Below, piece after piece: positions 1-61,585 of a stretch of DNA of 64,000 nucleotides. The notes below the pieces were generated by a model that searched no databases, had not been told where the DNA came from, and worked only from the letters and a program-made list of their open reading frames with translations. Made by a program: the position numbers and the translations under genes. Source of the DNA: Candidatus Aenigmatarchaeota archaeon (GTDB lineage Archaea; Aenigmatarchaeota; Aenigmatarchaeia; Aenigmatarchaeales; Aenigmatarchaeaceae); contig JBDRJK010000019.1 in NCBI GenBank assembly GCA_043814985.1, positions 32,001 through 96,000 of the forward strand, read 5' to 3'. Numbering within the stretch: position 1 is the first letter of the stretch; each line of letters starts with the position of its first letter.

Positions 1-261
1 CTGGGTAGACAGCTGCCCCTGTTAAGGGAGGAAATTCCATCCACCATTAGCCTCAAAGGCTTGCCGTCCCTCGGGATTAGGCTGAAAAGCTTAGGTGTCC
101 AATAGGGCTTCATGTTCGACTTGGACGATGCTGGCAAGGTGCAAGACCAAACAGCTCTGATGACGAAAGAGGAGCGGGTAGGTTGCATCAGACGAATGCT
201 GTCAAGCAGGAGTGATTGTTTTTACAGGATCTGCTCACAGAAGATGGATTATGCCCAGGCC
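1..261 (+). ncRNA. rnpB: RNase P RNA (type A-like catalytic domain, reduced S-domain; 5' end probably a few nt upstream of the window)
   Basis: CR-I GAGGAAAUUCCAUC (28-41) pairs with CR-V ACAGAAGAUGGAUUAU (237-252) to form P4 with a bulged U; P1 CUGGGUA/UGCCCAG; P2 GACAGC(8-13)/GCUGUC(198-203); P15 with GGUA loop; CR-IV-like AGACGAAUG. Confidence 0.9.
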
Positions 262-462
262 ACGACTATTTTTGTTCTATATGTAGACGTTTAACTGGCT
301 GTTGGCTTAAGCGTTATAAAAATCTTGTCATTAGGAGACGACTTCTGCTATTATATAGTTTTGAACATAGTTATTAGAACTTAAAACTACACATATATCA
401 AAACATCTAGCGTACATTATATGACTCATTTAATCAAAGAAAAAATATTTAGGTGATACAGA

Positions 463-33144: not shown

Positions 33145-33437
33145 TGGATGTAATGGGAAAATTGCAGCAACTTCTTCTAAAAATTCCCAGAGGCAAAGTA
33201 ACAACTTACAAGGAAATAGCTAGAGCGCTTGGTATCCATTCTAGGGCTGCCGGAAGATTGCTTGGAAGTAATCCTGACAGCAAGAAATACCCATGTTATA
33301 AGGTTGTTTATGCTGATGGAAGATTGGGAGGATACACTAGTTCTACAGGTTTAAAGGAAAAGGTAAAAAGACTTAAAAAAGATGGGATAGAAGTAAAGAA
33401 TGGAAGGATTGCCAAAAAGTCGTTCTTTTATTTTTAA
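33141..33437 (+). CDS. MGMT/Ogt-family alkyl-DNA binding protein
   Basis: IPRGKVTTY.EIA, RAAG, NP....PCYKVV..DG.LGGY. Confidence 0.88.
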   Translation: MMDVMGKLQQLLLKIPRGKVTTYKEIARALGIHSRAAGRLLGSNPDSKKYPCYKVVYADGRLGGYTSSTGLKEKVKRLKKDGIEVKNGRIAKKSFFYF

Positions 33438-33517
33438 GCTGTTTTTACTACTGGATGATAGTTTTATATATCACCTGAGCTTAATTATTATTACGGTTAA
33501 GTGATAAAGGTGTATAT

Positions 33518-33715
33518 GTGTTTCAATTTCCAAAAGGTGACTTTGTGTTTAGAAAACTCAAACCAAAAAGACCCGTTGTGATAAGGAACTGCAATACTGT
33601 AAAAGTTTGCTATTATCATAAGGGAACTAAGACATGCTTGGGTCCTTTGTGCTACTGGCTCAGGATTGGCAGATGTCCTATTCATGATAGGATAATAATC
33701 AAAAGAGGCAAGTAA
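33518..33715 (+). CDS. Small Cys-containing hypothetical protein
   Basis: TATA upstream; 65 aa with Cys/His cluster. Confidence 0.4.
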   Translation: MFQFPKGDFVFRKLKPKRPVVIRNCNTVKVCYYHKGTKTCLGPLCYWLRIGRCPIHDRIIIKRGK

Positions 33716-51706: not shown

Positions 51707-51822
51707 CCCCGTCTGGCTCAATGGTAGAGCGGTCGGCTGTAGCTTTTTACTGTTGTATTAAGCATTTAGCAACCGTTCAAACAGAAACCGACAGGTTGGG
51801 AGTTCGACTCTCCCGGCGGGGA
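51707..51822 (+). tRNA. tRNA-Tyr(GUA) with 44-nt intron (51743-51786)
   Basis: C1-G72 acceptor CCCCGUC/GGCGGGG, A73, BHB helix CUGU/ACAG, GUUCGA T-loop. Confidence 0.93.
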
Positions 51823-52489: not shown

Positions 52490-52747
52490 ATGGTCGTCAT
52501 ACTGAAGCTGAACAAAGGAACAGCAGAGAAGCTTTTGGAATTCACTTACATCAAGCCAGAGCAGTCTAGGAATCTCTCAGGCAAGGGACTGACATTGGAA
52601 ATTGATGATAAGGACTTTTTGATAGAAATACACGAAAGGGAAAAGATGATAGAGATAGCGGACTATAATGGAAGCTTCGGGATATGGTTCAAGCTTACAA
52701 AGGAGAAAGTCAAGAAATTGAAGGAAATAGCAAAAATGGGCCCATAA
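52490..52747 (+). CDS. Hypothetical protein between tRNAs
   Basis: 85-aa ORF from ATG 52490; last codons overlap tRNA-Lys. Confidence 0.65.
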   Translation: MVVILKLNKGTAEKLLEFTYIKPEQSRNLSGKGLTLEIDDKDFLIEIHEREKMIEIADYNGSFGIWFKLTKEKVKKLKEIAKMGP

Positions 52748-52859
52748 CTCAGTTGGTAGAGTGCCAGGCTTTTATCTGTTAGATAAAAGCATGTGTAACG
52801 CGAAAGCGTGATGACAGGAAGAAACCTGGAAGTCGTGGGTTCGACCCCCACTGGGCCCA
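52738..52859 (+). tRNA. tRNA-Lys(UUU) with 49-nt intron (52775-52823)
   Basis: GGGCCCA/UGGGCCC acceptor; CCAGG/CCUGG anticodon stem; BHB CUUU/GAAG. Confidence 0.92.
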
Positions 52860-52865
52860 CTTTAT

Positions 52866-52975
52866 GCCGAGATAGCTCAGCCTGGTGGAGCGCCGGTCTC
52901 ATAAAATCATTATGAGATTTGATCCCAAGATGATATGGAATCCGGAGGTCGAGGGTTCAAATCCCTCTCTCGGCA
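52866..52975 (+). tRNA. tRNA-Met(CAU), elongator type, with 36-nt intron (~52904-52939)
   Basis: G1-C72 acceptor GCCGAGA/UCUCGGC; relaxed splice motif (UCAU/AUGG), so a 38/39 position is also possible. Confidence 0.9.
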
Positions 52976-58141: not shown

Positions 58142-58250
58142 GGGGTCATAGTCCAACCAGGCCAAGACGGCTGGCTCCAGTCATGGAGCTTTGATTCCGA
58201 AGATGAAAGGAAGAAACCAGCTGATGGGGGTTCAAATCCCTCTGACCCCA
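58142..58250 (+). tRNA. tRNA-Trp(CCA) with 35-nt intron (58181-58215)
   Basis: GGGGUCA/UGACCCC acceptor; GCUGG/CCAGC anticodon stem. Confidence 0.92.
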
Positions 58251-58766: not shown

Positions 58767-60194
58767 GTGATTAACATGAGGATAGTCTTATGCACACCAC
58801 CATTCAGGACGACTGATTATTGCTGGCCACCTCTGGGTCTATTGTATATGGCTTCCTATCTCAAGACAAAAAGCAGCCATGTTGTGAAGGTCATTGACGC
58901 TTATTACAGCATGAATGAGAAGCAGTTTCTGGATCAAATGAAGAAGGAGAAGCCTGACGTGATAGGCTTCAGCTGTACAACTTACACATTCTTGAAATCA
59001 ATGGAACTGCTTAAGAAAATAAAAAATGCCCTTCCCAACACCACAATTGTTCTGGGCGGCATCCATGCGACATTCTTTGCTGACAAGATATTGAAGAACT
59101 ACAAGTTCATAGACTTTGTGGTCAGAGGAGAAGGTGAGATTGCCTTTACGGAACTGGTCAATAATCTGGGGAACAGGAAGAAACTGATAAATATCAATGG
59201 ACTGGCCCTTCGCGATAAAGGCAAGATAATAAGCAACGAGCCAAGCTTTATCTCTGATTTGGACTCCTTACCTTTGCCAGACAGAAGGCTTTTGGGGAAC
59301 AATGACTATTCACAGTACTGGTTTGGTCTGAAGCTTAACTTTGGAAAGTTCACCACGCTCCTGACATCAAGGGGGTGTCCGCACAATTGCAATTTCTGCT
59401 GTTGTTCCGCCCTGTTCAAGAGAAGATGGAGAACAAAGTCTGTAAAAAACATCCTTGATGAGTTGGAGGAGATGTACTTGCAGGGTTACGGGACCTGCAT
59501 TATTGTTGATGACAACTTTACCTTGAATCCCAAAAGAGTTGTTCAGATATGTAGGGGCATAAGAAAGAGAAAAATAAAGATGAATTTCCATTGCGAGGGA
59601 AGGGTCGACAGGACAGACCCCAAAATATTGAAGGAAATGAGAAAGGCAGGCTTTTCAACCATATACTTTGGGATGGAAAGCGGGGTCCAGAAGGCTCTTG
59701 ATTATTACAAGAAGGGGATTAAGGTTGAGCAAATCAAGAATGCTGTCAGGAATGTTAAAAAGGCTAGGATGAATGCTATAGGATCCTTCATAATAGGTTC
59801 CCCGGTAGAGACCAAGGAGGATGTAATGAAGACACTTGAATTCGCTTCTGGGTTGAAAATAGGTCTTCAGATAAACATACTAGAGCTTGTTCCAGGATCA
59901 GAGATATGGATGGATAATATTAAGAAGATGGGAAAGGACGACTGGAAGAAGGCGCATTTCATAACAGAATTCTATGACAACTTCACAAGAAAGGAGATGC
60001 TTTATTTTAGGGACTTGGGCTATAAGATGCTGTCTGAAAAGTGGATGAAAGTAAGTTCTGTGAAGGAACTGCCCAGCCTGTTGACAAGCTATAACGTAAA
60101 GGTTATAGTATCAAACATTTCCAAAGACCCATACTTATTCGTAAAACAGTTGAGCAAAATTCACAAAAAGGGTCTGTACCCTTTCAAGGTATGA
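58767..60194 (+). CDS. Cobalamin-binding radical SAM protein
   Basis: PPLGLLY, GGIHAT, GEGE, SRGCPHNCNFC, G.ESG. Confidence 0.93.
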   Translation: MINMRIVLCTPPFRTTDYCWPPLGLLYMASYLKTKSSHVVKVIDAYYSMNEKQFLDQMKKEKPDVIGFSCTTYTFLKSMELLKKIKNALPNTTIVLGGIHATFFADKILKNYKFIDFVVRGEGEIAFTELVNNLGNRKKLININGLALRDKGKIISNEPSFISDLDSLPLPDRRLLGNNDYSQYWFGLKLNFGKFTTLLTSRGCPHNCNFCCCSALFKRRWRTKSVKNILDELEEMYLQGYGTCIIVDDNFTLNPKRVVQICRGIRKRKIKMNFHCEGRVDRTDPKILKEMRKAGFSTIYFGMESGVQKALDYYKKGIKVEQIKNAVRNVKKARMNAIGSFIIGSPVETKEDVMKTLEFASGLKIGLQINILELVPGSEIWMDNIKKMGKDDWKKAHFITEFYDNFTRKEMLYFRDLGYKMLSEKWMKVSSVKELPSLLTSYNVKVIVSNISKDPYLFVKQLSKIHKKGLYPFKV

Positions 60195-60742
60195 GTATGG
60201 ATAAAACACAAAATGAAATAATCAAGACTGCTGCAGAAATTATTAGGAAAGGTCAAATAGTCGTGTATCCGACAGACACTGTCTATGGTATTGGTGGTGA
60301 TGCTACTTCTGAGGAGGTTGTTAGGAAAGTATACGAAATAAAGAGGAGACCTATGAATATGCCGATTTCAGTTCTTGTTTCAGACTTTGAAATGCTTGAG
60401 AAATATGCTGAAATAAACGAAGAGCAAATGGCTATCTTAAAGAAATTTTTACCAGGACCCTTCACCTTCATTCTAAAGCCAAAAATAAGGCTTTTTGTTT
60501 CTCGGGGTACAGTTGGGTTCAGAATACCAAATCACTGGTGCACCCTGATAGTTAAGGAATTTGGAAAGCCAATAACAACCACATCAGCCAACATACACCA
60601 ACAGACTACTCCTGATAACATAGAAAAAATAAGAGATAATTTTAAGGAATCTGTTTCTCTATACATAGATGAAGGAACTCTAGAAGGAAAGCCTTCAAAG
60701 GTTGTAGACTTGATAGATAGATTAAAAGTGATTAGAGAATGA
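60191..60742 (+). CDS. Threonylcarbamoyl-AMP synthase (YrdC/TsaC/Sua5 domain)
   Basis: YPTDTVYG, K.R, PGPFT, TTSAN. Confidence 0.95.
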   Translation: MSMDKTQNEIIKTAAEIIRKGQIVVYPTDTVYGIGGDATSEEVVRKVYEIKRRPMNMPISVLVSDFEMLEKYAEINEEQMAILKKFLPGPFTFILKPKIRLFVSRGTVGFRIPNHWCTLIVKEFGKPITTTSANIHQQTTPDNIEKIRDNFKESVSLYIDEGTLEGKPSKVVDLIDRLKVIRE

Positions 60743-60900
60743 AATACAAAAGGTTCAAACAATTCAAGGACCAGAGAAGGAAGATAGCAGAAGAGAGGAT
60801 AGAAATACTTGAAGGCATGGTAAAGAAGAAGCCTGAGTTCGAAAAGAGGTATAAAGAACTAATAAAAAGGATAGCTAAGAAATATAGATTAAACATTTAA
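60739..60900 (+). CDS. Truncated RNase P protein Rpp21-like (N-terminal helices only), 53 aa
   Basis: Hand translation RKIAEERIEIL...PEFEKRY..LI..IAKKYRLNI; sits just upstream of rps19e, where rpp21 is often found. Confidence 0.7.
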   Translation: MKYKRFKQFKDQRRKIAEERIEILEGMVKKKPEFEKRYKELIKRIAKKYRLNI

Positions 60901-60924
60901 ATATTAAAGACGTAAAGTGAGTTT

Positions 60925-61329
60925 ATGAAACAAGTGCCACCACAGAAGATTGTAGAGAGAGTTTCAGAGAGACTGAAGAAGGACGAGAACATCAAGCCTC
61001 CACAGTGGTCTAAGTTCGTGAAGACAGGTATGTCAAGCGAAAGGCCCCCTATAAAAGAGGACTGGTGGTTTTCCAGGTCCGCAGCCATTCTGAGAAGGAT
61101 TTATGTTCATGGGCCTGTTGGCACGCAGAGACTTAGGACGTCTTTGGGAGGCAGGAGAAGAAGAGGACACAAGCCTGCTCACCGTGCCAGTGCTGGAGGA
61201 AAGATAATAAGGACAATTCTTCAGCAGTTGGAAAAGGCTGGTTATGTTAAAATAGTTGAGAATCCAAAAAAGGGAAGAGTAATAACGCCCAAGGGCCAGA
61301 AACTTTTGGAAAAGGCTGCAGGTGGATAA
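60925..61329 (+). CDS. rps19e: Ribosomal protein eS19
   Basis: PP.W..FVKTG...ERPP, WW..R.A.ILR, IIR.ILQQLE, GR.ITP.G. Confidence 0.97.
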   Translation: MKQVPPQKIVERVSERLKKDENIKPPQWSKFVKTGMSSERPPIKEDWWFSRSAAILRRIYVHGPVGTQRLRTSLGGRRRRGHKPAHRASAGGKIIRTILQQLEKAGYVKIVENPKKGRVITPKGQKLLEKAAGG

Positions 61330-61585
61330 GATGAAGAGCGATGATGTCAAGCAGTTCGAGGATTTGAAGAACCAGACTCTCAGGAAGGTCCTGTCCAAAA
61401 ACGCCCTTGAAAGGCTTGGTAGAGTTAAGCTGGCAAACCCTGTGCTTGCGACCCAGTTGGAGATGTACTTGCTTCAGGCTTTCCAGACTGGCCAGTTGAA
61501 GGGAAACGTTGATGATAAAAAGCTGAAACAGATTCTCAATATCCTAGTTCCAAAAAAGAGGAAGACGAGTATCAAGAGAAAGTGA
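61322..61585 (+). CDS. PDCD5-like DNA-binding protein
   Basis: LR.VL...A.ERL.RVKLA.P, LK.IL. Confidence 0.88.
   Translation: MDKMKSDDVKQFEDLKNQTLRKVLSKNALERLGRVKLANPVLATQLEMYLLQAFQTGQLKGNVDDKKLKQILNILVPKKRKTSIKRK

Follow-up and report, generated by a model that had tools for sequence, protein, structure and literature searches.

Does the short open reading frame (ORF) that lies immediately before rps19e encode Rpp21, a protein subunit of ribonuclease P (RNase P), and, if so, what has become of the zinc ribbon? The ORF is in a 64,000 nucleotide (nt) stretch, hereafter the window, of contig C19 from an Aenigmatarchaeota genome (G000; 808 kb, completeness 91%). Coordinates are window positions unless a contig is named. 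The ORF occupies 60739..60900 on the forward strand, with an ATG start and a TAA stop, and encodes 53 amino acids. These include 20 lysine or arginine residues, 8 aspartate or glutamate residues and zero cysteines. Two helices are predicted, at residues 2-30 and 32-48. The motif IAxERIxIL...RY occupies residues 16-24 and 37-38, and 24 nt (60901-60924) separate the ORF from the rps19e ATG at 60925. A preliminary description of the window had noted the motif, the clean stop, the short gap and the lack of CxxC, and had argued that no frameshift could hide a ribbon. These points hold. In the other two frames, the 300 nt from the rpp21 start contain several stops, no CxxC and no ribbon. Rpp21 is encoded here in a conserved, ribbon-less form that consists of the two N-terminal helices only.

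Identity as Rpp21 was assessed by profile and by structure. With a profile of 40 short forms, the best matches were the sequences of the three archaeal Rpp21 proteins of solved structure (E 3e-8, 9e-7 and 4e-5; the next match was at 0.05). The profile aligns to residues 3-59 of the solved proteins, and the 53-residue protein matches residues ~3-55. The same protein was matched by a profile of 23 long Rpp21 forms (E 7e-8) and, as a single sequence, by positions 7-57 of 121 in NCBIfam PRK03954 (E 8e-4). PRK03954 also matched 39 of the 40 short homologues. Conversely, Pfam PF04032 (Rpr2) gave no match to the ORF at E<=1, and its cut-off was reached nowhere in the source genome (0/1 candidates). 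The AlphaFold2 model consists of two antiparallel helices, 2-30 and 32-48, with a predicted local distance difference test (pLDDT) score of 91.5. When this model was used as a Foldseek query the top 6 of 11 rows were Rpp21 structures, with weak E values (0.8-7). In other orders, the ORFs matched by an 18-row short-form profile were also those above the Pfam Rpr2 cut-off, and most of them lie directly before rps19e. There, full-length rpp21 occupies the same site before rps19e; the locus is orthologous. Homology to the N-terminal helices of Rpp21, as first proposed, is thus borne out.

An assembly or annotation artefact would explain the short frame without any biology, and all genomes compared are metagenome assemblies. 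This explanation is already refuted, and we give it next to no weight. The same stop region recurs in 28 genomes, as it does among 120 proteins from databases, and contigs from other runs agree: one from a second sample spans the whole rpp21 stretch without difference, and a more distant contig spans 60817-61100 with no gap. The ESM Atlas contains the 53-residue sequence, although a search of it with this protein gave no usable match. Seventeen other proteins of 53-64 residues resemble the mini-Rpp21 at 66-89% identity. None of the 120 short homologues checked has a CxxC, and all end 15-28 residues past the RY motif. Between G000 and a related genome (G001), changes by codon position number 13/8/35, so that third positions exceed second.

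Alternatively, the gene could be split, with the ribbon encoded elsewhere and supplied in trans. We regard this as highly improbable. A mixed profile run over the source genome gave a single Rpp21 match and no second copy; hence no full-length rpp21 was found elsewhere in this 91% complete genome. A ribbon-only profile, compared with 22,207 six-frame segments of the same genome, found nothing below E 0.024. As a control, an outgroup-only version of this profile recovered 4 of 5 long ribbons from the order (E 2e-10 to 7e-4), missing that of G041. What speaks for a split gene is the incompleteness of the genome and a 99-residue open frame with two CxxC knuckles at G000:C11:80459-80755. The latter is matched at E 0.018 by a profile of full-length Rpp21, but has no Rpr2 match and no confident Pfam family. 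The genome's own PF04032 candidate (E 0.13) has two internal stops, lies antisense within an ABC permease gene, and was rejected as noise.

The mini-Rpp21 likely still pairs with Rpp29 via its two helices. Rpp29 is intact in the source genome (G000:C13, about 33381-33659) and in 56 of 61 genomes. Co-folding the 53-mer with its own Rpp29 gave a predicted complex scoring 0.81, compared with 0.03 for the best of 3 controls; the mark used is reached by 116 of 157 solved pairs and 2 of 215 mismatched pairs. The runs agree in 100% of contacts, and the pLDDT of the partner is at least 80. The predicted interface covers residues 13-49. Six residues are invariant across 40 rows (I16, E19, R20, L24, R37 and Y38) and all six lie inside this interface. 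Mean conservation is 0.87 at the 18 predicted interface positions and 0.60 at 20 others. R20 and Y38 align with R17 and Y39 of Pyrococcus furiosus (Pfu) Rpp21, which are named as Rpp29 contacts (PMC4919917). When human RMP24 lacks the equivalent helix pair, RPP29 is insoluble (PMC12819141). Pop5, Rpp30, Rpp29 and L7Ae are all encoded in the source genome; with the 53-mer, all five proteins are encoded, and the 53-mer may be a subunit of an active RNase P.

The RNase P RNA of the source genome is at the start of the window, on the forward strand. The gene is 266 nt in length and begins 4 nt before the window (G000:C19:31997-32262, or -3..262, of which 1..262 are in the window). It scores 88.2 bits against RF00373, above the 84-bit cut-off, and is the single RNase P RNA found. 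The S-domain (46..137; 92 nt) is reduced, as the preliminary description held; its distal part has 34 nt where the RF00373 model has 84. Named by analogy, its helices are P7 (62-65/133-136), P8 (67-76) and P9 (78-93), which has a GNRA loop. The L9 GNRA positions are invariant in 19 RNAs. The remaining arm (96-127) is interrupted by a 2x3 internal loop and closes with a tip of 5 nt. Neither CR-II/CR-III motifs nor a kink-turn (K-turn) were found in this S-domain; a small internal loop takes the place of the large CR-II/CR-III loops. P16 (154..175), in the catalytic domain, has a K-loop-like UGAUGA end, read by eye, and is a probable L7Ae site that has been kept. KT1 of Pfu lies in P16-17 (PMC5499556). 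P2 is 6 base pairs (bp; 8-13/198-203), the P5/P15 linker reads as 3 nt and P6/P17 are not evident. P8, P9, P16 and P19 are kept. With this RNA and the other four proteins encoded, the suggestion of a minimal holoenzyme goes too far.

Two other features of these RNAs can be recorded here. P5 and P7 are separated by an additional hairpin (49-61), which is also present in G001, G006, G023, G026 and G031 and is missing in others. The P19 region (206-234; also L053, L044 and L034) has a K-turn-like motif in many of the order's RNAs and in some outside it (G045 and G058). This is a possible L7Ae site; the available text of PMC5499556 does not mention P19.

Is the altered RNA a property of the order? 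RNAs were recovered from 32 of 42 genomes of the order and 18 of 19 outside it (50 total; those of G013 and G020 are identical, leaving 31 distinct in the order). Searches with a sequence-only model of the RNA (10 genomes) and with a CR-I pattern (5 genomes) gave no further RNase P RNA, and that of G009 is cut by a contig start. Using a strict motif, the CR-II and CR-III pair was detected in 0/32 RNAs of the order and 13/18 outside. With a loose motif the counts were 1/32 (G024, inside a tetraloop hairpin) and 18/18. Among 11 further metagenome RNAs with the same catalytic-domain signature, 9 lack both motifs (two judged by eye) and the other 2 are canonical. S-domain length in the order ranges from 34 to about 180 nt; parsing of this domain failed for 7 of the 50 RNAs, and the motif and arm comparison took in all 50. 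The smallest S-domains (34-46 nt, in RNAs of 228-246 nt) are those of L053, L061, L125, L126 and L130, from G021, G032, G028, G027 and G033. These S-domains are type-T-sized, in a DPANN lineage, and four of the five genomes (G021, G027, G032 and G033) encode a mini-Rpp21. RNAalifold, applied to a MAFFT alignment of 10 S-domains, supports P8 and P9 (9 of 10 pairs with two-sided change). For the third arm it predicted no pairs in the same 10 sequences, and this arm rests on single-sequence folds.

A K-turn-like insert at the arm tip was seen, by eye, in G026, G031 and G038, which are 3/3 of the long-ribbon genomes with an RNA. No such insert was seen, again by eye, in 15 short-form arms folded or in G025; seven more short-form RNAs have S-domains of 34-82 nt without that arm. 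At the arm tip (105-117 and homologues), three elements are kept throughout the order: a strand rich in purines with a final C, an unpaired AU and a strand reading GUYY. Inserts of 2-84 nt lie between them. The tip may be a new site of contact with tRNA or protein. In another order, two RNAs of 208-245 nt (L134 of G056 and L047 of G049) keep CR-II and CR-III together with a full Rpp21. Their reduction has taken the opposite route, with P12 (in G056) and P15-16 cut back.

The tRNA elbows are of the normal kind: TTCR and the D-loop GG are present in 36 of 37 ARAGORN calls, and one call looks spurious. HARP, a possible back-up enzyme, was not found in any of the 42 genomes of the order. Because of these two observations, the ribonucleoprotein is likely the functional RNase P. 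Four intron-containing tRNA genes in the window (51707-51822, 52738-52859, 52866-52975 and 58142-58250) are found by Rfam and missed or mis-assigned by ARAGORN at default settings.

The distribution of ribbon loss was then compared with that of the RNA change. An Rpp21 match is present in 35 of the 42 genomes and 7 have none. No CxxC occurs in 28 of the 35: 27 proteins of 45-64 residues and that of G027, which has a cysteine-free run-on tail. A partial ribbon, or stub, is present in G005 (67 residues) and G025 (75 residues), and a long tail in 5 (99-110 residues). All 7 cysteine-bearing forms have the pattern CxxC...CxC, whereas full proteins from other orders have CxxC...CxxC in 18/18. The CxC second knuckle is also seen in some unplaced database proteins, and so is not unique. 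As a side observation, in one protein (P0049) the helices of mini-Rpp21 precede a stretch of about 65 residues that has no cysteine and no Pfam match. Phylum-wide, an Rpp21 profile matched 278 of 301 genomes; of these matches, the 150 that were listed extend over the whole profile. No ribbon-less Rpp21 was found outside the order among the matches listed, with 135 more matches beyond these. Five of the weakest matches outside the order are full-length or cut by contig ends.

A tree of 20 markers recovers the order as one clade (support 100), with the cysteine-bearing forms deep inside. The tree has 36 rows and came from a quick LG+G4 search, with Rpp29 excluded; 8 of 64 genomes (fewer than 5 markers) and then 16 more were dropped. 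Approximately unbiased (AU) tests, under this simple model and for groups named from the protein state, reject a single clade of short forms (p-AU 4e-5) and a single clade of cysteine-bearing forms (p-AU 2e-11). When losses only are counted, the number of events is 5 to 7 if any cysteine tail is considered, and 3 to 5 if the long ribbon is. On the simplest reading, the RNA changed early, at the base of the order, and the ribbon was lost repeatedly afterwards; transfer of rpp21 within the order may also have occurred. Across 7 of 8 families' worth of searched genomes the short form persists in a stable, conserved state; genomes found only in families f4 and f6 are without it. The proposal that RNA and protein were reduced together stands in part. 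Loss of the ribbon was observed in no order but this one, where the RNA has neither CR-II nor CR-III, but the coupling is loose: five genomes retain a long ribbon while the order's RNAs are without these motifs.

We think it probable that this order has an RNase P in which a ribbon-less Rpp21, its helices likely still on Rpp29, works with an RNA without the canonical elbow-gripping motifs. The ancestor of the order would have lost the CR-II/CR-III T-loop module, and the K-turn extension would then have been lost in most lineages. Neither RNA nor L7Ae would then have remained for the C-terminal zinc ribbon to hold, and the ribbon would have been deleted, independently, several times. L7Ae would now be limited to the K-turns of the catalytic domain (P16 and P19). 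The helices would have been retained because Rpp29 needs them for folding and solubility, and because the basic Rpp29-Rpp21 pair would still wedge at P1/P9 and offer a surface to tRNA. Such a folding and wedging role has a good chance of being correct. In the canonical archaeal enzyme Rpp21 is flanked by Rpp29 and L7Ae and contacts the T-loops as well as P12 with its extension, and the trimer is at P1 and P9 (PMC6565675).

Several observations weigh against this account. The link between K-turn and ribbon comes from three genomes of one family, or about one independent contrast; the RNAs of the cysteine-bearing genomes G009, G041 and G005 were not found, and in G025 part of the ribbon persists in the absence of a K-turn. 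We infer that the ribbon is the part of Rpp21 that holds L7Ae; the face at L7Ae is given as 'the flat surface of Rpp21' (PMC6565675). The CR-II/CR-III test was a motif search written after viewing the sequences, and a single divergent T-loop could escape it. The co-fold shows likeness to solved homologous Rpp21-Rpp29 complexes and may owe its score to the model's knowledge of them. Finally, G023 (90% complete, 7 contigs) and G030, both of family f4, gave no rpp21 match, though Rpp29 and the RNA are present. Rpp21 may have been lost completely in f4, which would make even the helices dispensable.

A different role for the protein can be envisaged, in which the first helix of mini-Rpp21, long and basic, joins Rpp29 in taking the place of the lost T-loop anchor and measures the tRNA. 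The canonical tRNA elbows agree with this, as does the abundance of lysine and arginine (20/53 residues; positions 44, 48 and 50 are basic in 90-97%). In Methanocaldococcus jannaschii (Mja), Rpp21, Rpp29 and Rpp30 make a basic surface facing the tRNA, and Rpp21-Rpp29 stimulates an Mja RNA without an S-domain (PMC3001054). However, residues 1-12 vary in length and sequence, conservation is concentrated on the Rpp29 face, and family f4 seems to do without the gene. We consider such a takeover unlikely. Less likely still is a gene in decay that is heading for complete loss, as in type T RNase P, which is the preliminary idea of a reduction 'caught midway'. The full range of states in the order (5 long, 2 partial, 28 ribbon-less and 7 not found) and the spread of S-domain lengths fit with decay. 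The six invariant residues, the codon-position bias and the sharp common end point do not. Moreover, the short form arose repeatedly and is retained beside the smallest S-domains, and the RNA change looks basal. What we prefer, a ribbon-less Rpp21 likely paired with Rpp29 beside an altered RNA, describes a real feature: a variant archaeal RNase P that is neither a snapshot of decay nor a minimal enzyme.

The closest known system is archaeal Rpp21 (PF04032; PRK03954; Pfu 2K3R/2KI7, Pyrococcus horikoshii (Pho) 1X0T/2ZAE, Mja 6K0A chain G). Shared features are the N-terminal helix pair, the residues matching Pfu R17/Y39, the site before rps19e and the predicted Rpp29 interface. Archaeal Rpp21 has 120-128 residues; conversely, the mini-form ends at about residue 55, has lost all four cysteines and has an inter-helix loop about 4 residues shorter. 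It is also without two arginines needed for Pho RNase P activity (PMC4919917). In human RMP24/RPP21 the two N-terminal helices likewise form the RPP29-binding surface, but both eukaryotic proteins retain a beta-sheet domain (PMC12819141). With type A RNAs (RF00373) the source RNA shares the catalytic core, P8, P9, P15 and a P16 with a K-turn-like motif; unlike them, it has no CR-II/CR-III motifs and no P12 K-turns. Type A is further recognised by a P16-17 element with a K-turn and by a P6 pseudoknot; of these, P16 with the UGAUGA motif is present in the source RNA. Type M lacks P6, P16 and P17 (PMC3001054) and keeps CR-II/III with the P12 K-turn (PMC6565675), whereas the source RNA has P16 and is without CR-II/III and an S-domain K-turn.

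The type T RNase P of Thermoproteaceae also combines a reduced S-domain without CR-II with a reduced Rpp21 complement (PMC3579882, PMC13462272). Type T is recognised by the loss of most of the S-domain and a P10 that is capped or absent; the source RNA has a 92-nt S-domain with a capped arm. Its P2 is 6 bp compared with 3 bp in type T (PMC3579882), and P8, P9 and an 11-bp arm are kept. Type T is also marked by a shortened P15 and a P5/P15 linker of 2 nt, against the 3 nt read here. Rpp21 is shortened here and undetectable there. The order's outcome thus differs from type T: the RNA-facing half of Rpp21 is lost and the Rpp29-facing half is kept, even beside type-T-sized S-domains. The reduction is convergent with type T because the host belongs to a DPANN lineage.

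The genes around rpp21 are all on the forward strand. Upstream, the Sua5/YrdC gene (60191..60742) overlaps the rpp21 start at its stop (ATGA). The gene in this position differs among relatives, and Sua5/YrdC is a neighbour only. A B12-binding radical SAM gene (58767-60194) precedes it and is near rpp21 in G002 and G013 too. Downstream, rps19e (60925..61329) is followed by a gene for a PDCD5-like dsDNA-binding protein (61322..61585), a member of the same conserved cluster, and then by a small basic ORF that we take to be rpl39e.

No publication was found on a ribbon-less Rpp21 or on the order's RNA; subscription papers and supplements (including the inventories of PMC4919917 and PMC12974513) were outside the search. 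Membership of the Rpp21 family was already known, as several relatives carry the JGI automatic label 'RNase P subunit RPR2'; the truncation and its context appear new. The type T Rpp21 was sought with PSI-BLAST and with PF04032 down to -80 bits (PMC3579882), and its absence has been explained by an absent binding site (PMC13462272). Because Pfam Rpr2 is blind to the mini-form, and the reported absence rested on Pfam and PSI-BLAST, the missing type T Rpp21 may be a similar mini-subunit. A new search of type T organisms is worthwhile, as PF04032 missed the mini-form at ordinary settings, and the short-form profile provides a tool for finding Rpp21 forms that escape Pfam. More tentatively, the whole order could possess a fourth form of the archaeal enzyme, not described so far. 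In it, the near-universal, interleaved T-loop ruler would have been dropped, and a two-helix Rpp21 bound to Rpp29 would be the part of that subunit that cannot be reduced further and might itself read the tRNA elbow. The four cysteines of Rpp21 have been described as near-universal and required for activity, and the double T-loop as a conserved tRNA ruler; both are removed here. The order provides a graded series, from a long ribbon with a K-turn, through a partial ribbon, to helices only and possibly none, with S-domains from about 180 to 34 nt. This series makes testable the role of each half of Rpp21, and how RNase P positions tRNA without a T-loop anchor.
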